The notes under the pieces: model-generated
What the model was told of the DNA's origin: nothing
Database searches by the model: none
Seen by the model: the letters and a program-made list of their open reading frames with translations, nothing else
Shown: piece by piece, positions 3,095-56,609 of the stretch
Position numbering within the stretch: the first letter of the stretch is position 1
How the letters are laid out: each line of letters starts with the position of its first letter
Position numbers and translations under genes: made by a program
NCBI GenBank assembly: GCA_964016885.1
Contig: OZ024749.1
Location: 56,296,001-56,360,000 of the forward strand
Direction of reading: 5' to 3'
Source: Eledone cirrhosa
Lineage: Eukaryota
DNA: 64,000 nt

Positions 3095-3930
3095 AAATTG
3101 TTGGCCTTGTACCTATATCAAAAACTATTATATTCCATTACTTAAGGGGCAGTGGATTGGCATAATTGGTAGAGCATTGGATAACATGCTTTACCTTTCA
3201 TCCGTACAGGATCAATAAAATAAAATAAAGTACCAGTAATGCACTGGGGTCAATTTAATCAACTTTCTCCTCTCTACCCACCTCCACCAAATTGTTGGCC
3301 TTGTACCTAAATTAGAAACCATTATATTCCATTACTTAAGGGGCAGTAGATTGGCAGAATCGGTAGAGCATCGGATAACATGCTTTGCAGCATAGAGTTA
3401 CGGCCCTTTACGTTCTGAGTTCAAATCATGTCGAGGTTAACTTTGCCTTCCATCCTTACAGGGTCAGTAAAATAAAGCACAAGTAATACACTGGGGTAAT
3501 TGCTGGCCTTGTGCCAAAACAATTATATTCCACTACTTAAGAACATTATATTATTAGACTGGCGGTGGATTGGCAGTATCGGTAGAGGGTCGGACGCCAT
3601 GCTTTCTAGCATAGTTACGTCCCTTTACAGTCTGAGTTCAAATCCCGCCGAGGTTAACTTTGCCTTTCATCCTTACGGGGTCGATAAAATAAAGTACCAG
3701 TAATGTACTGGGTAATTGCTGGCCTTGTGCCTAAAGTAGAAACAATTATATTATTAGACTTCTAGTAATTGGTAGAATCAGTAGAGCATCAGACAACATG
3801 CTTTACCTTTCATCCTTATGGGATCGATAAAATAAAGTACCAGTAATGCACTGGGGTTGATTTAATCAACTTTCTCCTCCTCCCTTAAAAACAATTGTTG
3901 GTCTTGTACCTAAACCAGAATCCATCATTG
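3095..3930 (+). mobile_element. Tandem stack of 4-5 tRNA-SINE copies (full and internally deleted)
   Basis: Successive SINE heads at ~3146, ~3340, ~3561 and ~3765, separated by repeated spacers (TATTCCATTACTTAAG, ATTATATTATTAGACT). Confidence 0.85.
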
Positions 3931-6409: not shown

Positions 6410-7136
6410 AAGCACAGCACAGCTCCCATGACTTTTTGAAACATTTTTTCATGCCCAGAGTTGCTGAAGCATGGAACAAACTACTTGCATCAGTTATTAG
6501 CTGTCAGGACACTGCATCCTTTAAAACCTCCATGGAACAAACTACCTGCATCAGTTGTTAGCTGTCAGGACACTGCATCCTTTAAAACCTCCATGGAACA
6601 AACTACTTGCATCAGTTGTTAGCTGTCAGGACACTGCATCCTTTAAAACCTCCATGGAACAAACTACCTGCATCAGTTGTTAGCTGTCAGGACACTGCAT
6701 CCTTTAAAACCTCCATGGAACAAACTACCTGCATCAGTTGTTAGCTGTCAGGACACTGCATCCTTTAAAACCTCCATGGAACAAACTACCTGCATCAGTT
6801 GTTAGCTGTCAGGACACTGCATCCTTTAAAACCTCCATGGAACAAACTACCTGCATCAGTTGTTAGCTGTCAGGACACTGCATCCTTTAAAACCTCCATG
6901 GAACAAACTACTTGCATCAGTTGTTAGCTGTCGAGACACTGCATCCTTTAAAACCTCCATGCTTCCTGAGATTTGCCAACACTACACCTAATATTCCCCC
7001 TCCATACACACTCACACGTGTATATATCATGACTCATACACTATTCACTTCCCTGACATTTGTATATTATTCTATCTACTATACATGCACCTTTGATGAG
7101 TTGTAGTGCACCTGAGCACTGTACACAATTTCATTA
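6410..7136 (+). mobile_element. CR1-like LINE 3' fragment with internal tandem expansion
   Basis: Encodes ..FF..RVAEAWNKL.ASVISC.DTASFKTSM, a CR1-type ORF2 C-terminal motif. The 3' UTR matches the inverted copy at 52280-52705. Confidence 0.75.
6470..6957 (+). repeat. 61-bp tandem repeat x8 derived from LINE coding sequence
   Basis: Unit CATGGAACAAACTACCTGCATCAGTTGTTAGCTGTCAGGACACTGCATCCTTTAAAACCTC starts at 6470, 6531, 6592 ... 6897. Confidence 0.95.
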
Positions 7137-24875: not shown

Positions 24876-25345
24876 TTTCTTTATTAGCCACAGGGGCACA
24901 AAAGAAGGGGACAAATACAAAGGGGGAAGTTTACATACAATAAAAACGTGTAAAATGTTATCACAGATGGAATTTAAAAGTTAGTCGATTTTCCCCAATA
25001 GAGGGAGACAGTTTATATGGGTAACACAGACCCCCGAAAAAAAATGTGCAACCCTCATCTCCAGGAGTACGAAGAGCTTGTACTCCTTTCCTCTCCTCCT
25101 CCTTTTCCTCAACCTACAGGCTGATATAGAGAGAAGGCCCATTCACTCGGGCCATTCTCGCCACTTTCACCCACCTTTCATAAAACTTGCTGGGGTACAG
25201 CACCTCTCTCTCCATCCTGATTCTTCTTCCAAAGTGGTATTTGAAAAAAAGAATCAGTTGTTGGCCGGAGAGAAAGGTGTCTGACCTCAGCCCTTTCAAC
25301 CTTGTCCACCATACAACCTCTTTCGCCATAGCTATCACACAAAGG
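24876..25345 (-). mobile_element. 5'-truncated Tx1-like LINE, subfamily B (copy 1)
   Basis: Encodes the ORF2 C-terminus (..AMAKEVVWWTRLKG..GPSLYISL*) plus 3' UTR. About 6 differences from 31463-31933. (GATA)n on both sides. Confidence 0.92.
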
Positions 25346-25629
25346 TAGATAGATAGATAGATAAGTTTCTTTTATTTGCCACTAGGGCATCAAAAGTGGG
25401 ACAAGTACAAAGGGGGGGAGTTTACACAAAAAGGCGTCCTCAATAAGGAGGAGGCAATAACAAAATATAAAAATAAAATAAGATATAACAAAAAATAAAA
25501 TTTTTAACAAAATCCTCAATAGAGAGGAGGCGCCTTGGGGGGGTCGCACACACCCCCGAAAAAAGTGTGCAACCCTTTTCCTCAGGAGCACAGAGAGGGG
25601 GTGCTCCCTCGTTCCTTCCTCTTTTCCAC

Positions 25630-28600
25630 CTACAGGCTTATGTAAAGAGAAGGCCCATTCACACGGGCCATTCTCGCCACTTTCACCCACCTTTCATAAA
25701 AACGACTGGGGTGCAGCACCTCTCTCTCCATCCTGATCCTTCTTCCGAAATGATATCGGAAGAAACGGACCAGTTGTTGGCCAGAGAGAAAGGCGCCCGA
25801 CCTCAGTCCTTTCAGACGCGTCCACCATACAACCTCTTTCGCCATGGCTATTACGCACAGAAACACCGCCTCTGCTTCATCTTTGAAGGGGGGAGGCGGC
25901 TTGATCATTACAATAGACTCGGTGGTCAACCGGATCGGTCCCACCCTTGACAGCAGTTGTTCGACATAGCCCCACAGATCGGCTACGCCCGAGCAGTGTA
26001 CCAATGCGTGTGCAACGGTTTCCTCGTCGCACACGCATCTGGGACAGATCTTTTTGGCGGGGTCCCTACCCGGGCGCCCGTGTCTGTAGAGCCTTTCTCG
26101 AACGGGTAAAGCCCCTCGGTAGCACTGCCAGGCCAGGGACTTCTGGAAGTTGTCCATAGGTCCCGGGCTGAATGTCCTACCGAACAGGCTGGCCAGTTCG
26201 TCCTCCTCCATGTCTAGGGCTTCTCCGAGGGCGTCGTCGCACCTGCTGCGTACCAGCCCTCTATAGAATGTTGCGGTGGAGTCTCCACTGATAACCGGAT
26301 CCGCCTGCCAGAGGGCGGTGAGCGCCTGGGCACACTCAGTGTGCCAGGCGCCCAGTTTTCTCGGTCTCTGCTTGACCCAGGATTGCAGTTCGGTGAGTGA
26401 GACGAGTCTGGGAAAGGTTCGTCTCACAAACGGGGCCCACACCGGTTGTCCGGTGAGGAATACGTAGAGGTGCCGTAGCCTTAATGCGTGTTTACGCATC
26501 ATTAGCCACGGCATCCCCAGCCCTCCTTTCGAAGGGTGTTGACAGCAGATGGATCTCCTCACCATAGGAGCCCGCCCCTTCCAAAGGAATTGGAAGAGCG
26601 CGCGCTCCATCTTGGTGAGGGTTTCCCTTGGGCAGGGCACTACGGTCAGGCGGTAGTAGATGACGGACGCTATATAAGTGTTCGCCACCTCCGCCCGACC
26701 TTTCAGGGATAGTTTGCAACTGGCCCACTTCTGGGTCAGTGCAAACACCCTGTTCGTAACCTCCGCCCAGTTTTTCTCCACCTGGAGGTCCGGTCCGAAC
26801 CAGACCCCGAGCAACTTCACCGGGCCCTCCGTCCAGCGTCCGACGACGCCATCGGAAGGCATCGGTCTGCCCCTCCACGTGCCGAGTTGCAAACCGATCG
26901 ACTTGTCCCGGTTCAGCTTAGCCCCTGTGAACTTTTCGTACTCCTCCAGTAAGGTGCCGACCGCCTCGATTTCGGAGGCCGTCGACACCATTACTGTCAC
27001 ATCATCGGCGTAGGCTGACACCGCTTTCCGCAATCCCGGTTCCAAAGGGATGCCCTGCAACAACTCCAACTTCCGCAGTAGTGGCTCGAGAGTCAACACA
27101 TACAGAAGGGAGGAGAGAGGGCACCCTTGTCGGATGGACCGCGCGATTTTGAACGGCTCCGAGAGGTAACCGTTCACCTTGACCCTAGAGCAGATGCGGC
27201 TGCTGTGCATAGCAGTGATCCAGCCCCTGAAAACGGGTCCGAAGCCTGCCGCCGCTAGCACCGCATCCAGGTAACCATGGTCGACCCTATCGAACGCCTT
27301 AGATTGATCCAAGTTGATCAGAGCCCCACCAAAGCCGGGTTCGTTCCCAACCCTCTCTATGATGTATCGCATGAGGTGGAGGTTGTCATGGATGGACCTG
27401 GACGGGATAGCGCATGTCTGCGCATCTCCCACCAGGTTGCCCACGACAAGCGCCAACCTCTTTGCTAGCACTTTGGCCAAAATCTGTAACTCTGTATTTA
27501 GCAGAGTTATGGGCCTGAAGTTACTTATTTCGTCCCCCTTGTTCTCGTCCTTCCTCACTAGCGTGACTACGCCCTTGGTCACAGTACAGGGAATTCTCCC
27601 GTTCTGTTGCCAGTTGCAGTAGACCGCCTCGAGGAGATCGGGGAACAAGTCCGGCATAGCTAGATATAATTCGTAAGGAAGACCATCGAGACCCGGGGAT
27701 TTGCGTTTGCCGCATTGGCCCAGCACGTCCTCTATCTCAGCGGCCGAAATCGGCTCCTCGCAAGACTTCGCCTCCCTGTCCGAGAGGCGCGGCAGGCCGT
27801 CGAGGTATGGATCGAAGTCCACGTTTCCAACCGGCTCCCCGCCCCTCCCGAACAGTCGGGCAAAGTGCCTTTGAAAGGCCTCACACATCTGCTTAGGCTC
27901 AAGAATCGCCCGTCCATCCAGGTCTCGCAAAGACCGGATGGTGGATTTAGTTCCACTGTTGGCCTCTGTCACGCGGGCCCAGCTAACAGCTTTGGCCCCC
28001 TCGTTCCCTAGAGCACGTATTTTACTTCGGACAACGCAGCCTTCGTGCTTCGCGTCGAAAAACTGGCTCAAAGCCGTTCTCGACGCTAGCACTCTGGCCA
28101 CGTCGCCGCTTCTAATTGCCTCTTCTACTCTATCTATTAGCTCCCTTTCCTTCCTATTCCTATCCGCAGCTAGAACCTTACTAAATTCAATCGAGACTAC
28201 TCTAATCTCTCTCTTTAGAGATACCCACCACCTGCTGTTGACGATCGCTCCAGTCAACCGTTCCTTAACTAACGTACTAATCCGATTCCTGTAGGCTCTA
28301 CTTGCCGGCAAGGACAAGTTGAGCTTCCAGTAACCGGGGCCCTGTCTATGCGTTCTATCAAGGTTGACCATGCAGGTCACCAACTTGTGGTCTGAATAGC
28401 CAACCATGAGCATTTCTGGACAACTTAAAAAGTCCCTGTCCTTATTTCTAACTAAAAATCTATCTAGGTACGATCTAGATGATCCGCTGCGATTTGACCA
28501 AGACCAGGTTGGCACCGTCGGAAAATCTAGTCGAAATCTATCGGCCAGGTCAAATCGGCCGAGTAACCCCTTGAGGCTGTTGCACCCCTCTCTATCGGGA

Positions 28601-29067
28601 CATGCCCCTGCATAGTCCCAACGTGCATCCAGGATACCATTCCAATCCCCCACTAAAAGCAGGGAACGGGACGTCCCTAGAAAAGACTCCAGACGCTGGA
28701 AAAAGTCGGGCCGCTCTGTCCCAAAAGGGGCATATGCGGCTATCAGCCTAAAGGCTCTACCTTCACCACTGCCAAGGTCCAGCACCACCAGTCGACCCCC
28801 TGGGTCCAAGTGAACTATCTGTGTTGCAAGGCCCATATGTTTTTGCAGCAGAACGACAACCCCACCCCCACCTCCGGGCTGACAGAGAGATGCGTGCATC
28901 TCAAAGTCGTCAAAGGTGGGGGCTAGCTGTCGCATGCTGCTGATCCGGGCCTCGCAGATAACCATCACATTTATAGATTGTGACCTGAGGTCATTTAGAA
29001 GCATTGCTTGCTTCCAAGACGAGCCCAGGCCACGCGCATTTAGACACCCTACTCTTAGCACAGCCAT
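25630..29067 (-). CDS. LINE ORF2: apurinic-like endonuclease + reverse transcriptase + zinc-binding C-terminus (~1145 aa)
   Basis: APE motifs LNARG, ICE, YAP, GDWN, YLDRF, SDH. RT motifs KSPGLDG, FRPITLLN, LDQSKAFDRV, RQGCPLS, YADD, KLLGV. Zinc motif CPRC..ETVAHALVHC. First ATG at 29067; no stops. Confidence 0.95.
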   Translation of the reverse strand: MAVLRVGCLNARGLGSSWKQAMLLNDLRSQSINVMVICEARISSMRQLAPTFDDFEMHASLCQPGGGGGVVVLLQKHMGLATQIVHLDPGGRLVVLDLGSGEGRAFRLIAAYAPFGTERPDFFQRLESFLGTSRSLLLVGDWNGILDARWDYAGACPDREGCNSLKGLLGRFDLADRFRLDFPTVPTWSWSNRSGSSRSYLDRFLVRNKDRDFLSCPEMLMVGYSDHKLVTCMVNLDRTHRQGPGYWKLNLSLPASRAYRNRISTLVKERLTGAIVNSRWWVSLKREIRVVSIEFSKVLAADRNRKERELIDRVEEAIRSGDVARVLASRTALSQFFDAKHEGCVVRSKIRALGNEGAKAVSWARVTEANSGTKSTIRSLRDLDGRAILEPKQMCEAFQRHFARLFGRGGEPVGNVDFDPYLDGLPRLSDREAKSCEEPISAAEIEDVLGQCGKRKSPGLDGLPYELYLAMPDLFPDLLEAVYCNWQQNGRIPCTVTKGVVTLVRKDENKGDEISNFRPITLLNTELQILAKVLAKRLALVVGNLVGDAQTCAIPSRSIHDNLHLMRYIIERVGNEPGFGGALINLDQSKAFDRVDHGYLDAVLAAAGFGPVFRGWITAMHSSRICSRVKVNGYLSEPFKIARSIRQGCPLSSLLYVLTLEPLLRKLELLQGIPLEPGLRKAVSAYADDVTVMVSTASEIEAVGTLLEEYEKFTGAKLNRDKSIGLQLGTWRGRPMPSDGVVGRWTEGPVKLLGVWFGPDLQVEKNWAEVTNRVFALTQKWASCKLSLKGRAEVANTYIASVIYYRLTVVPCPRETLTKMERALFQFLWKGRAPMVRRSICCQHPSKGGLGMPWLMMRKHALRLRHLYVFLTGQPVWAPFVRRTFPRLVSLTELQSWVKQRPRKLGAWHTECAQALTALWQADPVISGDSTATFYRGLVRSRCDDALGEALDMEEDELASLFGRTFSPGPMDNFQKSLAWQCYRGALPVRERLYRHGRPGRDPAKKICPRCVCDEETVAHALVHCSGVADLWGYVEQLLSRVGPIRLTTESIVMIKPPPPFKDEAEAVFLCVIAMAKEVVWWTRLKGLRSGAFLSGQQLVRFFRYHFGRRIRMEREVLHPSRFYERWVKVARMARVNGPSLYISL

Positions 29068-29122
29068 GTTGGTGGTAAAGAGAAAAGGCACTTACCTCTC
29101 TGCGTCCCGGGAAACGGGCCGC

Positions 29123-30738
29123 TCAATTTCCATGCTGGTTGGGGATGGGTTGTTGGGTGGGGTTGTGGTTTGTGGAAGTGAAGGGGCATCGGTGTGTTGT
29201 GGGGTTGGGGTGTTTGTCGTTGAGTGGGTGTCTGGGTGAGGTGGGGGGGTGAAATTTTTTAGGAGGACGCGGTTGATTGGTTTGGCGCAGGGGGGGCCCA
29301 CGTCCTCCGTGAAATTTATTTTCAGTGTTTTGTACAAGTGCATTGGGACTTTTATCATTTTCAAATGAGGTAGTCCCACAGCAGTTATAAAGTTTGGCCC
29401 TTCGGTTTGGACCGAAGGGTTTGCTGAAATTGTTTTCCGTAATTCTTTGTTGTCTGTGTTCATGTATGTGTATTGTAATGTCTTTTTTTTGTGTAGCAGT
29501 TAGTGTTGTGTGACAGGGAGGGGTGGTTTGTGTGTAGTTTGTGTTCTCTTGGGGGGGGTTAAAGTTAACATGTGTGTCTGTGGTGCGTCTCCTCTTCTTT
29601 CTTTTTACTTGTTGGAAGGGATCTTTTTCGTCTTGCGACGAAAGAGGTTCGTCTTCCTTGTTGGGTGGGAGGGGTATGTTTTCTGGTAGTGTTTGCGGTG
29701 TGCGTGTTTTTGTATTTGTTTTGGGTGGGGAGGGATTGGGTGGGACAGTATTCTGTGTTATTTTTTCACGTGTTTGTTGTTGTTGTTGTTGTGGTGGTGG
29801 TGGTGGTGGGGTTGTTGGTTTTTGTTGTTGTTGTGGTTGTTTTTGTTGTTGTAGTTGGGGTGGTGTTGGTGTTGGTAGCAGTGTTTTTTTCTGTGTGAGC
29901 TGGGGACAGGCAGCCCTCAGGTGACCTCTATTGCCACAGAGGTAACAGGAGGGACGCCTACCCTCCACAATAATGTTGAGGTGGGTACGGTCATCCAGCA
30001 TGACGCGCTCAGGGATTTGGGCGATGCGTTCTGGCCTTATTTGGGTCAGAACTTCGAGGCTCGTTCCACTGAACGCGTCGCCGGATGCCTTCCCTATTGA
30101 GATGAGGTTGTCCTCGTCTAAATTGAGGAAACCGGTTAGTAACCACCAGTAGTTTATGTTTGGGGTGATGGTGGTTATCCATATCCTCTGGGTTTTTTTA
30201 CCCATGTAGGTGGGGAAGAAGGTGTAGTGTGTGGACCGAATTGGCGACACAGAGTATTTTTTTGCCGCCAATTCGTCTTTCATCAATATGGATAAACTCC
30301 CATAGAGTTTATCCTTTTGTATGAAAGTGATGTCTCTCATCGCGTCTTTCAAGACTAACTGAGTTTCTGCTTGAGATGGTTGCGCTGGTTTCTTTGTTTT
30401 ATTTAAAATTGTTCGGAATACGACAGTTCGTAATTCCGTCTGTCTTTTTAGCTCCGGAGGTGAATGTATAGAAAACGATCCGTTTTCGCCAAAAGACACA
30501 TATTTCTTGGCTTTTTCCAGCATTTCTTTTGCTTTTGAAATATCTTCCAGCACATAAGCGACTGATAATTTAGCCGTTTGTGCAAAAGATATTTTGTTTT
30601 CGTTTTGGATATTAGTATTGTTTTGTTTCTCGTCGTTTGAGTTGTTTTCATCTTTGTTGTTGTTGTTGTCTTTCTCGTTTCGTGTGTGGATACTTGTGAC
30701 GTTTGTGTTGTTGTTGTTTTTGCTGTCTTTATTGTTGC

Positions 30739-30769
<31 letters not shown>

Positions 30770-30946
30770 GTTTTCAAATTCTTGTGTAGTTGTGGCTACA
30801 TCTAGTGGTCGGTCAACAGGTGAAGACAATTCTTCCTCTCTCTGACCTCTGCCTTTGGCATCTGCTGCTGTGACAGTGGCAGGGGGAAGCTGTGAGTATA
30901 ACTTCCCCTTTCCTTCTTTGATTGATGGTGAGGATGCTTCAGCCAT
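29123..30946 (-). CDS. LINE ORF1 gag-like nucleic-acid-binding protein (C-terminus uncertain)
   Basis: Long open frame upstream of ORF2 with zinc knuckle CYLCGNRGHLRAAC, N-rich and Q/P-rich tracts and basic KRKKRRR. First ATG at 30946. Confidence 0.85.
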
Positions 30947-31171
30947 TTTTCTCAAAATAGGGTTTTTCGAAGTTTTTCGAAAGATAAAATGTTCACAATA
31001 CTATTTCGCCCAAAGGCGCAGAATATTTTGAGAGACCGACCAGATCAAAATTTGACCTGGCAGTCCCTCTACAAAATGATACAAAAATGAAAGTTTACAG
31101 TTTACAATTTCCGTATGAATTTAAACAAAAACTTACCGAGCGAGCTCAGCACATGTGTCCATCGTAGAGAG

Positions 31172-31172
<1 letters not shown>

Positions 31173-31220
<48 letters not shown>

Positions 31221-31246
31221 TGTAGATAGATAGATAGATATGTAGG

Positions 31247-31304
<58 letters not shown>

Positions 31305-31406
31305 TATAGATAGGTAGGTAGATAGATAGATAGATAGATATGTAGGTAGATAGACAGATAGATATGTAGGTAGATAGATAGATAGATAGATAGATAGATA
31401 TGTAGG

Positions 31407-31462
<56 letters not shown>
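31173..31462. repeat. (GATA)n microsatellite segment between LINE copies
   Basis: GATA repeats with GTAG variants. Further segments at 24785-24872, 25346-25363 and 32221-32245. Confidence 0.95.
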
Positions 31463-31463
<1 letters not shown>

Positions 31464-32220
31464 TTCTTTATTAGCCACAGGGGCACAAAAGAAGGGGACA
31501 AATACAAAGGGGGAAGTTTACATACACTAAAAACGTCTAAAATGTTATCACAGATGGAATTTAAAAAGTTAGTCGATTTTCCCCAATAGAGGGAGACAGT
31601 TTATATGGGTAACACATACCCCCGAAAAAAAATGTGCAACCCTCATCTCCAGGAGTACGAAGAGTTTGTACTCCTTTCCTCTCCTCCTTCTTTTCCTCAA
31701 CCTACAGGCTGATATAGAGAGAAGGCCCATTCACTCGGGCCATTCTCGCCACTTTCACCCACCTTTCATAAAACTTGCTGGGGTACAGCACCTCTCTCTC
31801 CATCCTGATTCTTCTTCCAAAGTGGTATTTGAAAAAAAGAATCAGTTGTTGGCCGGAGAGAAAGGTGTCTGACCTCAGCCCTTTCAACCTTGTCCACCAT
31901 ACAACCTCTTTCGCCATAGCTATCACACAAAGGAAAACCGCCTCTCCTTCGTTTTTGAAGGAGGGTGGCGGTTTGATCATGACAATGGACTCGGTGGTCA
32001 ACTGGATTGGTCCCACCCGCGACAATAGTCGTTCTACATAGCCCCACAGGTCAGTGACGCCCGGGCAGTGTATGAATGCGTGCGCGACGGTTTCTTCGTC
32101 TCGCACGCACCTCGGACAGATCTTTTTTGCAGGGTCCCTGCCCGGGCGCCCATGTCTGTAGAGCTTGTCTCGAACTGGTAGAGCTCCTCGGTAGCACTGC
32201 CAGGCCAGGGACTTTTGGAA
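31463..32220 (-). mobile_element. 5'-truncated Tx1-like LINE, subfamily B (copy 2)
   Basis: An open frame encodes the last ~172 aa of ORF2 (FQKSLAWQCYRG..CPRC..HAFIHC..YISL*), roughly 19 substitutions relative to subfamily A. (GATA)n on both sides. Confidence 0.92.
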
Positions 32221-48769: not shown

Positions 48770-48911
48770 TATATATATATACACAAACACCAATTATTGA
48801 GGAATATTTTTTGTTGACTGTTGATATGTACCTTTGAGCTGTATTGCTATCAGTTATCAGCCATGTTGTATCATCACCATCATCACCATCACCATCACTA
48901 TCATCATCACT

Positions 48912-48945
<34 letters not shown>

Positions 48946-48994
48946 CCATCACCACCATCACCATCATCACCATCATCACCATCATCATCATCAT

Positions 48995-49164
48995 TGGGGA
49001 ATTTTTTTTGTTGTTTTATGTTATTTTATATTTTTATATTATTTTATATATATTCAATGTTAATAGTTTAGTTATGTATTTTTACTTGATTTTATTGTAG
49101 CCCCCCCCCCCCCCTTGTCATTGTATTGTCCCCTATTTGTCGTCCCTTGTGGCCAATAAAGAAA
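48995..49164 (+). mobile_element. 3' UTR fragment of a Tx1-related LINE inserted in (CAT)n
   Basis: Ends CCCCCCTTGTCATTGTATTGTCCCCTATTTGTCGTCCCTTGTGGCCAATAAAGAAA, aligning with the subfamily B end CCCCCTTTGTATTTGTCCCCTTCTTTTGTGCCCCTGTGGCTAATAAAGAAA. (CAT)n on both sides. Confidence 0.7.
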
Positions 49165-49330
49165 TCATCATCATCATCATGATTATTATCATTATTATCA
49201 ATAACATTATTATTATTTAAAAAAAATAAAAATAAAAGGATAAAAATAAAAGGATAAAAATAAAAGGATAAAAATAAAAGGATAAAAATAAAAGGATAAA
49301 AATAAAAAAAAAATTAAATTAAAAAGAATA

Positions 49331-51086: not shown

Positions 51087-51583
51087 TCATCATCATCATC
51101 ATCATTTTACGTCCGCTTTTCCCTGCTTGCAAGGGTGGGACGGGTCTTATTCAGCACAGCATCTCTCCACTCGTCACGGTCCCTCGTCATCTCCACCGTG
51201 AGCTTCAATGATCTGAGGTCTGTTCTCACCACCTCCGCCCATGTTTTTCGTGGTCTACCTCTACCGCTGGCATTTCCTGGCACTTCTTCACCCATCGGTC
51301 ATCCTCCATGCGCATCACATGTCCATACCACCTCAGTCTCCTCTCCCGTACACTACATTCTATCCCTCTCAGACACAGTTTCTCTCTCAACACATTTATG
51401 CTGGGTCGTTCACGCACATTTACACTGCACATCCAACGGAGCATGCTTGCCTCATTTCTCTCCAGCCGTCGCATATCCTCTGCGGTTGCTGCCCATGTCT
51501 CACTACCATGCAGCATCGCGCTCCTCACACAGGCATCATACAACCGGCCTTTCGTACGCAGGGAGAAACCCTTCTTCGTCAAC
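51087..51583 (-). mobile_element. 5'-truncated RTE-clade LINE (frameshifted) with ~25-bp TSD
   Basis: Encodes KGRLYDACVRSAMLHGSETW..RERRLRWYGHVMRM.., then frameshifts to GRPRKTW..DRDEWR..KTRPTLASREKRT*. (TGA)n tail. ATATATATATATATGATACTATATA at 51062-51086 and 51584-51608. Confidence 0.88.
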
Positions 51584-52279
51584 ATATATATATATATGAT
51601 ACTATATAGATATATTTATTTAATGATTCAACATGGTAACAAAGATTTTAGGGTGAAAGTGAAAAATATAGGAGGGGGGGGGAGATGTTGTGATTATTTT
51701 TTAATATAAGGAAAAGTATATATATACCCACAGGTTGATTAAGTCCTACTGTTGATTAAGTCCTACAGGTGAAACTATGTTCTACAGTGAAAACCTGTTA
51801 GCTGTAGTGGTGGTGGGTTGGGGTGGTGGGTTGGGGTGGTGGGGAGGTTTGATAAAGATATATCGATATGGAGTGGTTGAGGAGTATATTTGGATAAAGG
51901 TCTTACAGCTGCAAACATGTTCTACAAGGAAAACATGTTAGAGGTAGTGTAGTGATAAATGAATGGTTGTTAGGTGTGGGGATGAGGGTGGTTGTTGGGT
52001 GTGGGCACGAGCTGGCGAGAGGCAACCCTTTCATGACTGCATTTCTTGACTTTTTCACAAAATAAGTACAGCATGTAGTGTGTAGTGTAGTATGTAGTGT
52101 AGCATGTAGTGCAGCGTGTAATATGTAGGGAGAAGGATTGGCAAATGAGAACTTATCTGGTGGGGCCGGCAACACGAATGCTCCTACAGTGGTCCCTAAT
52201 TACTACAGGGTCATCTGATAACCCTGTGGTAAACAGGCAAAAATCCAGAGTAGCAAGATTCACTTTTGAGTATATGTGT

Positions 52280-52705
52280 ATAATAATAATAATAATAATG
52301 AAATTATTGTGTACAGTACTCAGGTGCACTACAACTCATCAAAGGTGCATGTATAGTACATAGAATAATGTAGAAATGTCAGGAAAATGAACAGTGTACG
52401 AGTCATAAAATACATGTATGGAGGGGGGCATCAGGTGTGTTGGCGAATTTCAGGAAGCATGGAGGTTTTAAAGGATGCAGTGTCTCGACAGCTAATAACT
52501 GATGCAGGGATGTTCCATGGAGGTTTTAAAGGATGCAGTGTCTCGACAGCTAATAACTGATGCAGGTAGTTTATTCCATGCTTCAGCAACTCTAAGCGTG
52601 AACAACTGTTTCCGAAAGTAATGGGAGTTGTGCTGTTTTCTGACTTTGTTGGCATGCCCACGTGTGTTAGACACATGGAGATCAAAAAGGTGCTCAGGGT
52701 TGTGT
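52280..52705 (-). mobile_element. CR1-like LINE 3' fragment with (ATT)n tail
   Basis: Encodes NTRGHANKVRKQ..FRKQLFTLRVAEAWNKLPASVISC. Same family as 6410-7136. Confidence 0.82.
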
Positions 52706-53495
52706 GTACATATATATATATATCTACATACATAAACACACATATGCCTGCTATTGTAAGTACTGCTAGAGCTAGAGGGCTAATTCTGTGAAACTTTTAT
52801 AGAAGCAACAACAAAACGACAACAGCAACAACAACAAAAGCAGCACCAACAGCAACAGTAGTAGCAGCAATAGTTTTCTTCTTTATTATCACACCACTTA
52901 GTAACTACAAAGCTACAAAAGGATTAATGCAATGAACCAATCCATACGAATAGATTACCAATTTAGGCAGCAGGTCGGGGTGGCAAAGAAGGGTGTTGTC
53001 TTATCAGGGGAATATTTTCCAAACCTCAGATAAGAATACCTTCCATCACATGGAATTAAGACAGGTGTGTGTGTTTTTAGAATTTCCATTGAAAACAGAA
53101 TTTTCTATTGAAAACATAAAACTTCCTATTCACACATCTATTCTCTGGCAGTTTTCTAAATGTGGAATTGCTAGTGATAGAATGATAAATATTTGTAGCT
53201 TGTTGTTGTTTTGGTGGTGGTGTTGTTGTTGTTGTTGTTGTTGTTGAATGCTATTTCATAATCAGAATAAATAGCAACAAAGAATCGGCAAGAACCATAG
53301 AATTCTTTTGTTTTAGTATAGAAGAACTGCTTTGCTTTAACTCTTTCACTACTTGCCACCACACCACTACACCACTGCCACACCACCACACCACCACCAC
53401 CGCCACACCCTTTCAAGATGTTTGACAGCATTGGAAGAGATGCTAGATAGAAGATAGCGAGGGGAGAAGAGGCAGCAAGGATGGAAAATTAGTGT

Positions 53496-55885: not shown

Positions 55886-56287
55886 ATATAACCAAAAATA
55901 ATATCAAAAATATTGTAGAACTCTGTAGAAATACTAGTGCCAGAATAGGACTAGAAATTAGCATCACAGAGGCATTGGACCTGACCGACTGATTCCTCTT
56001 TGCCTCGGGTCTTTGTTGAGACATCAACAAATTATTAAATAAATAAGTAAATACATAACAATAATATTTCCATCAAGCTGTGTATTAACACATATATATA
56101 TATATATATATAGAGATAGAGAGAGAGGGGGGGGGAGGGTCTCCTCACATAAACAATTTCTAATTTTAATAAATTCAGAAGTTGAAAAAAAAGAGAACTT
56201 AATGCAAATTGTTGATACTGAAAATAGATTTCCTTCATATATATATACACATATAAATAAATAAATAAATAAATAAATAAATATACT

Positions 56288-56351
<64 letters not shown>

Positions 56352-56357
56352 ACTTAC

Positions 56358-56481
56358 TGTTTCCATGTATTGGAGAAATTTCTTATTTGTTTCATCTTTA
56401 TTGAAGTTTTGCAGATATTTCTGTCTGTATGCTAAAACAGTGTCAATGTGTGTCTTGTGTTTCACAGCTAGCTCGAGAGCC
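56358..56481 (-). CDS. IFT80: Intraflagellar transport protein 80, penultimate coding exon
   Basis: Acceptor TTGTTTCAG, 1 nt plus 41 codons [41 protein letters not shown], donor GTAAGT. Matches the remembered IFT80 motif [23 protein letters not shown]...ETNKRYL. Confidence 0.95.
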
Positions 56482-56609
56482 CTGAAACAACATGAAACAT
56501 TTACAGTTAATAATCTCTCACAAACTAACTTAAGGGAGTTAGTTACTTGGAAATATGACATATATATAGAGAGAGAATCATTAGAACATCTGACTGATAC
56601 AATGACAAG

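Follow-up and report, generated by a model that had tools for sequence, protein, structure and literature searches.

A 170-bp T-rich fragment interrupts a (CAT)n microsatellite in the 64,000-nucleotide stretch of Eledone cirrhosa DNA that we analyzed (the window). A sequence-only reading of this DNA had proposed a sister Tx1-like lineage with (ATC)n as its target, next to relatives targeting (ATCT)n. The locus raises the question of whether a retrotransposon family that targets (CAT)n exists, or whether the fragment belongs to a family with another target. We consider it very probable that an L1/Tx1-like LINE of an (ATT)n family left the fragment as an old 3' end, truncated on its 5' side, that it likely landed off target, and that the lineages concerned share one RNA signal but use different DNA targets.

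The Fragment and Its Flanks

The insert occupies positions 48995-49164 and carries, as previously described, a C-run followed by the terminal sequence GTGGCCAATAAAGAAA in the window. The features of the locus are:

48870..48994, + strand: (CAT/CAC)n tract with the 5' junction (from the sequence and the family alignment)
48995..49164, + strand: 5'-truncated 3' UTR that belongs to an old copy from the (ATT)n-associated lineage ATT_B and shares 75-83% identity with its nearest copies
49142..49154, + strand: predicted terminal RNA hairpin with a 4-bp stem and a CTTGT loop, one pair being broken in the fragment copy
49165..49218, + strand: T(CAT)5, then a decayed ATT-type tract (from the sequence)

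Exactly five CAT units flank the fragment on each side, followed on the right by ATT-type repeat, and this symmetry fits a 15-bp duplication at ATCAT. The last five units before the fragment (48980-48994) are likely the left copy of a 15-bp target-site duplication, and the (CAT)5 at 49166-49180 is likely its right copy and/or a slipped element terminus; some of the right-hand CAT could stem from a TCATCAT terminus that slipped. ATCAT is one base off ATTAT, and a true ATTAT lies 16 bases away. The 5' break shows 2-3 bases of microhomology, i.e., the final AT or CAT before the fragment consists of the same bases as the family's own upstream sequence, which reads CCTAT in 48 copies and CCCAT in nine at the fragment's start point.

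The 16-mer terminal motif was found four times in the window at two or fewer mismatches, compared with a mean of 0.14 and a maximum of 2 in 100 shuffles. The other three matches mark the 3' ends of LINE copies flanked by (TCTA)n. The terminal signal that had been noted as common to the fragment and the GATA-associated elements was thus borne out, both by these four matches and by the covarying hairpin predicted for all families (see below).

Family Membership of the Fragment

The 3.0-Gb genome was searched with the fragment; 40 of the 689 candidates were scored and the first 30 loci taken. The 29 non-self loci among these first 30 of 689 candidates were 75-83% identical to the fragment, and many extended upstream into ORF2 of an L1/Tx1-like lineage, in line with the suspected Tx1-like kinship. 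None of the 29 had four CAT units after its end; ATT units, counted by eye, followed in about 24. Over the 170 bp, the fragment gave alignment scores of 129-205 with ATT_B-type ends, versus 62-85 with ATT_A/C ends and 78-91 with TCTA ends. Its nearest copies (L002, L004, and L006) fell within the ATT_B clade with support of 97/96 in an ORF2 DNA tree that has no outgroup. A tree of the UTR only did not separate the low-complexity fragment, which has no ORF2, between ATT_B and TCTA.

LINE Copies and Their Coding Capacity

The TCTA-class relatives in the window form a tandem array at 24876-32220 (- strand), made up of one full-length LINE and two truncated copies:

25366..31165, - strand: full-length (TCTA)n-flanked sister element, with ORF1 at about 30946-29123 and an intact ORF2 at 29067-25630
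31463..32220, - strand: 5'-truncated TCTA-class copy flanked by (TCTA)n at either end, placed upstream of the full-length copy in the tandem array
24876..25345, - strand: 5'-truncated TCTA-class copy flanked by (TCTA)n at either end, placed downstream of the full-length copy in the tandem array

The window ORF2 (1,145 amino acids) comprises an APE domain, an RT domain and a C-terminal zinc finger. ORF1 has a CCHC knuckle of the form C-x2-C-x4-H-x4-C, and no such knuckle was found in the single ATT_B ORF1 stretch examined. Intact ORF2s are present in both the ATT and TCTA classes, and at least 150 TCTA-class genomic copies are 98-100% identical in APE. The ORF2s of both classes matched Pfam PF03372, PF00078, and PF13966 and have a C-terminal CCHC motif; neither had a Pfam match to RNase H. 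Among solved structures, ORF2 was closest to human L1 ORF2p (E 2.7e-48, residues 4-852), with R2 at 6e-19, and the nearest named protein was from Argonauta hians (67%). Matches automatically named "Transposon TX1" were distant (38% RT identity) and lay outside the ingroup in an RT tree built without curated Tx1 references. Judged by domains, closeness to L1 and target preference, the elements appear to behave like microsatellite-targeting Tx1 families, and it is in this L1/Tx1-like sense that we call them Tx1-like. A large set of unnamed proteins (P0002-P0012, P0050-P0119), with 50-54% RT identity, is the sister group to the present elements and has longer and varied hairpin loops.

The window holds further features. 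An exon-sized match to an IFT80/172 TPR domain (PF23387, E 3e-18) lies at 56238-56609 (- strand; codons 43-86 of the frame), and the window is probably within an IFT80-like gene. The segments 6470-6961 and about 52300-52800 (- strand) concern a 61-bp tandem array (eight copies), the unit of which matches the 3' region of a presumably CR1-like element found with an (ATT)n end at another place in the window; from this match, we read the array as a minisatellite born from a LINE end. The segment at 51226-51615 (- strand) resembles what is presumably the C-terminus of an RTE-type ORF, with no Pfam match there. Ends which we assume to be RTE-like carry (GAT)n in the E. cirrhosa genome, and are likely one source of its (CAT)n tracts.

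3' Junctions and Target-Site Duplications

Following GAAA and two variable bases, ATTAT was present in 69 of 91 ATT-class ends and TATCT in 45 of 53 TCTA-class ends, giving the junction formulae GAAA-NN-ATTAT and GAAA-NN-TATCT, respectively. GAAA|TC had been put forward as the junction shared by both repeats. Of the three other window copies, the one that ends at 31463 conforms to it, but the remaining two read GAAA|TA and GAAA|CT, and TC directly after GAAA was found in 57/91 ATT-class and 11/53 TCTA-class ends. Given that these two bases vary by family, the "TC" is variable element sequence. The accompanying argument that both repeats contain ATC does not hold either, the junction motifs being ATTAT and TATCT. 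Duplications of 18, 18, and 16 bp in unique sequence (L094, L095, and L137) start two bases past GAAA. At informative sites in general, duplications measured 15-18 bp. Tandem arrays were also present.

Divergence of the Endonuclease

The TCTA families formed one clade in the RT (98/99), APE (95/93) and whole-ORF2 (100/100, two TCTA rows only) trees. As the TCTA families are monophyletic, one change separates the targets. A placement of TCTA inside ATT in the RT tree (AU p = 0.0035) was set aside, being confounded by two foreign rows, P0001 and P0049, among the ATT rows; ATT monophyly gave p = 0.093 with these two included in the clade and p = 0.37 without them. The whole-ORF2 tree favored ATT and P0001/P0049 together (79/97), a TCTA plus ATT_B grouping was not rejected (p = 0.19), and the APE tree gave no resolution of the direction of the switch (p = 0.20). 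Since the corrected tests were non-significant either way, we make no claim on that direction.

APE identity was about 60% between TCTA and ATT, compared with 72% between ATT_A and ATT_B. The C-terminal region had a similar excess of divergence on the TCTA side and the RT had none. From these comparisons, the APE of the TCTA clade seems to have diverged faster. The beta-hairpin loop was placed by alignment to LR1 and by the T192/S202 anchors (from the cited part of PMC1950540), and corresponds in the full-length copy to:

28471..28503, - strand: APE beta-hairpin loop codons, with S as the tip residue (28488-28486)

Between these anchors the loop has the length of that of L1. At the tip, the equivalent of L1 P197, each of the 31 ATT loops read had I or M and each of the 11 TCTA loops had S; the position behind the next glycine was more variable in TCTA. 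A further 23 APE columns were class-fixed (12, 27, and 15 copies; three segments skipped). The loop comparison suggested by the sequence-only reading therefore did reveal a tip that differs (I/M versus mostly S), but between the ATT and TCTA classes and not for CAT.

Point changes at the L1 loop tip left nicking specificity unaltered in the cited part of PMC1950540, which names RNA-DNA pairing as a possible further filter; thus, specificity may depend on more than the loop. A tentative alternative, which we regard as possible but somewhat doubtful, is that the target is set mainly by the RNA tail as it pairs with the nicked DNA, with a loose AT-rich endonuclease in both lineages and secondary changes in APE. 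It would explain loops that differ at essentially one tip residue and the TAT common to both motifs, and it agrees with the L1 tip changes and the pairing filter of the same excerpt. The greater APE divergence on the TCTA side (60% versus 72%) and the 23 class-fixed columns argue against it, yet the C-terminal region diverged likewise. This alternative bears on the mechanism of the split and not on the identity of the fragment.

A Predicted Terminal Hairpin and a Model of Insertion

The terminal signature common to all families is predicted to be a covarying 4-bp hairpin. The predicted stems are GGCC/GGCC in ATT_B, AACC/GGTT in ATT_A and TGCC/GGCA in one TCTA family, with a loop that is mostly CTTGT, and RNAalifold recovered the hairpin unaided in nine hand-picked ends. 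Three of the four pairs change on both sides, and the degree of covariation was reached by none of 500 shuffles and exceeded all slid controls; these figures concern four pairs in nine hand-picked, related rows, whose kinship and small stem weaken the shuffle control.

Target-primed reverse transcription is an established model, and the following steps are based on it. The ORF2 protein would bind the 3' hairpin of its own RNA, and its APE domain would nick the bottom strand at ATTAT in the ATT families or at TATCT in the TCTA families. The freed 3' end could then prime reverse transcription by pairing with the repeats in the RNA tail, and a second nick some 15-18 nt off would duplicate the target. 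As the duplicated target regenerates the site, tandem arrays might follow. The lineages would in this way have kept one RNA signal with a different DNA target.

A tRNA-Like SINE as Candidate Passenger

The same terminal hairpin loop is found in a tRNA-like SINE of 183 bp, with at least 122,531 exact ends genome-wide, of which the window holds this example:

3561..3743, + strand: SINE that carries this loop in its terminal hairpin and has a 16-bp duplication beginning with ATTAT

Its terminus reads TGGC-CTTGT-GCC(A/T), then GAAA-CA-ATTAT. The head contains motifs that, by eye, look A- and B-box-like; ARAGORN found no tRNA within the window. Among near-full copies, exact duplications were present in 27 of 44 (8-21 bp, median 15) and 26 of the 27 start with ATTAT, a set that includes some duplications made of repeat only and two duplicate loci. 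SINE sites are often non-repetitive, which suggests that ATTAT is the recognized unit; microsatellites would then be dense arrays of ATTAT.

We favor the view that the SINE is mobilized by the ATT lineages, which its terminal sequence makes probable. Its tail matched five of six Tx1-like families modestly, with scores reached by 15-67 of 2,000 shuffles (262/2,000 for ATT_A). A less probable but serious possibility is that another LINE moves it, e.g., the CR1-like element with an (ATT)n end, and that the Tx1-like resemblance is due to chance. Such an ATT-tailed end does exist, and PMC3747384 names CR1 and RTE as the most frequent partners of SINEs. However, the SINE tail showed no match to the CR1-like, Dong-like or RTE-like ends (scores reached by 1,714, 1,134, and 709 of 2,000 shuffles, respectively), and the SINE keeps the CTTGT loop with swapped, i.e., compensatory, stem pairs, as well as the GAAA-NN-ATTAT spacing.

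Some SINE copies were also observed inside the LINEs (ORF1 or 5' UTR), where they occupy single ATTAT-like sites and have clean duplications (L098/L100, L111, and L109). Separately, long tandem arrays (L047 2200-8700 and L042 6800-7500) repeat the opening 43-45 bases of the SINE head; by their sequence, we interpret them as a satellite that arose from the promoter region of the SINE.

5' Flanks of the (ATT)n and (TCTA)n Classes

For the 5' junctions, 144 ends were mapped and 52 dropped (21 at a locus edge, 27 with an unresolved 5' end and four shorter than 40 bp), the flagged copy not being among those kept. The loci were the first matches on one contig, with 20 TCTA loci picked for imperfect 3' flanks, and are hence not a random sample. 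In the ATT class, an ATT 8-mer was present at 26/50 junctions, ATC at 2/50 (one having both) and TCTA at 0/50; in the TCTA class, TCTA was present at 26/42, with ATT and ATC at none. The background rate of such 8-mers was 0.3-1%. No repeat 8-mer was found at 23/50 ATT-class and 16/42 TCTA-class 5' flanks (about 40-45%), some of which are SINE tails or imperfect duplications. Part of the 5' repeat signal is due to tandem insertion into the tail of an earlier copy.

It is very unlikely that the repeats are element tails made by slippage, with non-specific insertion and copies piling into each other's tails. Although 3' repeats outnumber 5' repeats (40/50 versus 26/50 for ATT; 31/42 versus 26/42 for TCTA) and many copies lie in tandem, the class-specific 5' repeat was also found where the upstream neighbor is not another such LINE (e.g., L042, L046, L065, L068, and L070), the classes never cross, and unique duplications begin with ATTAT/ATTAC or TATCT. 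The split between (ATT)n and (TCTA)n is real and has family structure. Related lineages with a shared signal and split targets had been correctly anticipated, but the counterpart of the (TCTA)n target is (ATT)n, not (ATC)n; the flanks of the sampled copies follow family.

ATT-class ends were often seen back to back with the (TAA)n end of a presumably Dong-like element (L055, L056, L060, L063, L067, and others). Dong belongs to a different clade from Tx1-like elements. It appears that two unrelated LINE groups use a single microsatellite, each on its own strand, and build mixed arrays.

Search for a (CAT)n-Targeting Family

Exact ends were counted genome-wide in two forms, one with 25,392 occurrences and one, with an extra T, with 4,234; the first 100 listed of each form were nearly all followed by TCTA or ATT. 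By length-matched patterns across the genome, the extra-T form was followed by four CAT units seven times versus 2,278 times by ATT units. The fragment's own 16-mer was followed by four CAT units five times, itself included, versus 2,057 times by ATT, the ATT pattern having two fewer fixed bases. Ends with three CAT units numbered 24. The 12 CAT-followed ends were spread over several families; CAT was at the 5' junction in the flagged copy only, and in five there was ATT or a SINE tail. A TCATCAT terminus followed by TAT units was found at 111 ends from several ATT subfamilies. No (CAT)n was present at a resolved 5' junction in any of 50 TCATCAT-end rows (in one row, a tract lies some 30 bp further upstream); of these rows, a few represent the same place twice, 13 extend past the locus edge and three lack a terminal match. 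One candidate CAT targeter, L174, was rejected as a TCTA-class copy with a CAT 3' flank and a TCTA-type 5' junction. Four patterns together with the flank checks yielded no (CAT)n family.

The original model of one sister family targeting (ATC)n and another (ATCT)n is extremely unlikely: CAT at both junctions of the flagged copy, an old TCATCAT-ending subgroup with several CAT-rich 3' flanks and the above-background ATC 8-mers 5' of 2/50 ATT-class copies speak for it, but 12 exact four-CAT ends from several families, one of them with 5' CAT, stand against more than 4,300 ATT ends, the TCATCAT-end rows have no (CAT)n at resolved 5' junctions, and both ATC cases are compound ATT/ATC tracts. For ends matching the searched patterns, an (ATC)n family is largely refuted, and the fragment's family is not a (CAT)n one. 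The end does occur beside other repeats, abundantly so for ATT and TCTA, whereas the 12 ends before four CAT units represent no family of their own.

The flagged locus is an ordinary stray copy of the (ATT)n family. It likely arose when an element missed its usual target and inserted at the margin of a compound tract that combines (CAT)n and (ATT)n. Rare CAT insertions of this kind might be permitted by ATCAT being one base from ATTAT, with a (GAT)n primer pairing with an (AUU)n tail through G:U wobbles.

Relation to Known Systems

Related APE-type Tx1 families with differing microsatellites have been described, i.e., Kibi with (TC)n, Koshi with (TTC)n and crocodilian families with (TTCC)n/(TTTC)n (PMC4494074; PMC3812793; both cited from excerpts), so that target switching itself is already known from these excerpts. 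Here too, related families prefer different microsatellites. Compared by published description, the present targets are AT-rich, (ATT)n and (TCTA)n, unlike the pyrimidine repeats of Kibi and Koshi, and both classes have young, intact copies. The same excerpt of PMC4494074 describes SINEU in crocodilians, inferred from a shared target to be moved by Tx1-Mar. SINEU has an snRNA head and a poly(A) tail, whereas the SINE described here has a tRNA-like head and a predicted terminal hairpin in common with the LINE. A hairpin shared by SINE and LINE would be a stringent type of recognition.

The APE fold and the T192-S202 loop length match those of the human L1 endonuclease used for LTx and LR1 grafts (cited part of PMC1950540). 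In that excerpt, loop grafts between distant enzymes did not transfer specificity, the loops not being modular. While those grafts joined distant enzymes, the present pair is natural, 60% identical and separated by one main loop-tip change. As for Dong, these elements target (TAA)n (excerpt of PMC3812793) and Dong-R4 is active in Octopus vulgaris (PMC13282606, in part); the Dong-like ends here carry (TAA)n, the same repeat class on the opposite strand.

In the cited text of PMC13282606, Octopus vulgaris has 13 recently active L1-Tx1 families with 421 insertions, which likely overlap with the families seen here; the word "target" is absent from its main text, which names neither a target nor a SINE partner. 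In the papers covered, we found no description of Tx1 elements with ATT or TCTA as their target and none of an octopus SINE-Tx1 pair. The excerpts of PMC4758252, PMC4824008, PMC3747384, PMC5786205, and PMC9115989 likewise contain no octopus SINE-Tx1 pair.

For microsatellite targeters, the sequence preference of LINE APE is described as not well understood in the excerpt of PMC3812793. The proposed series for mapping this specificity survives as a testable enzyme pair, with (ATT)n versus (TCTA)n in place of a (CAT)n switch. Two intact natural enzymes with 60% identity, non-overlapping targets and a shared RNA signal could, through swaps, allow the effects of the endonuclease to be separated from those of tail pairing. 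If the link to the SINE is true, the engine of a very abundant repeat would be named, and hairpin-based recognition would be shown in a Tx1-like element. The wider reading, on which we are evenly divided, is that an octopod Tx1-like radiation has retained a single stringent 3' hairpin of 13 nt, whereas its endonuclease changed between ATTAT and TATCT, with very young intact copies on both sides making this the closest natural pair for APE specificity. A tRNA SINE with more than 120,000 copies would have captured the same hairpin, and the clade would thereby drive a main SINE expansion and seed (ATT)n and (TCTA)n tracts.
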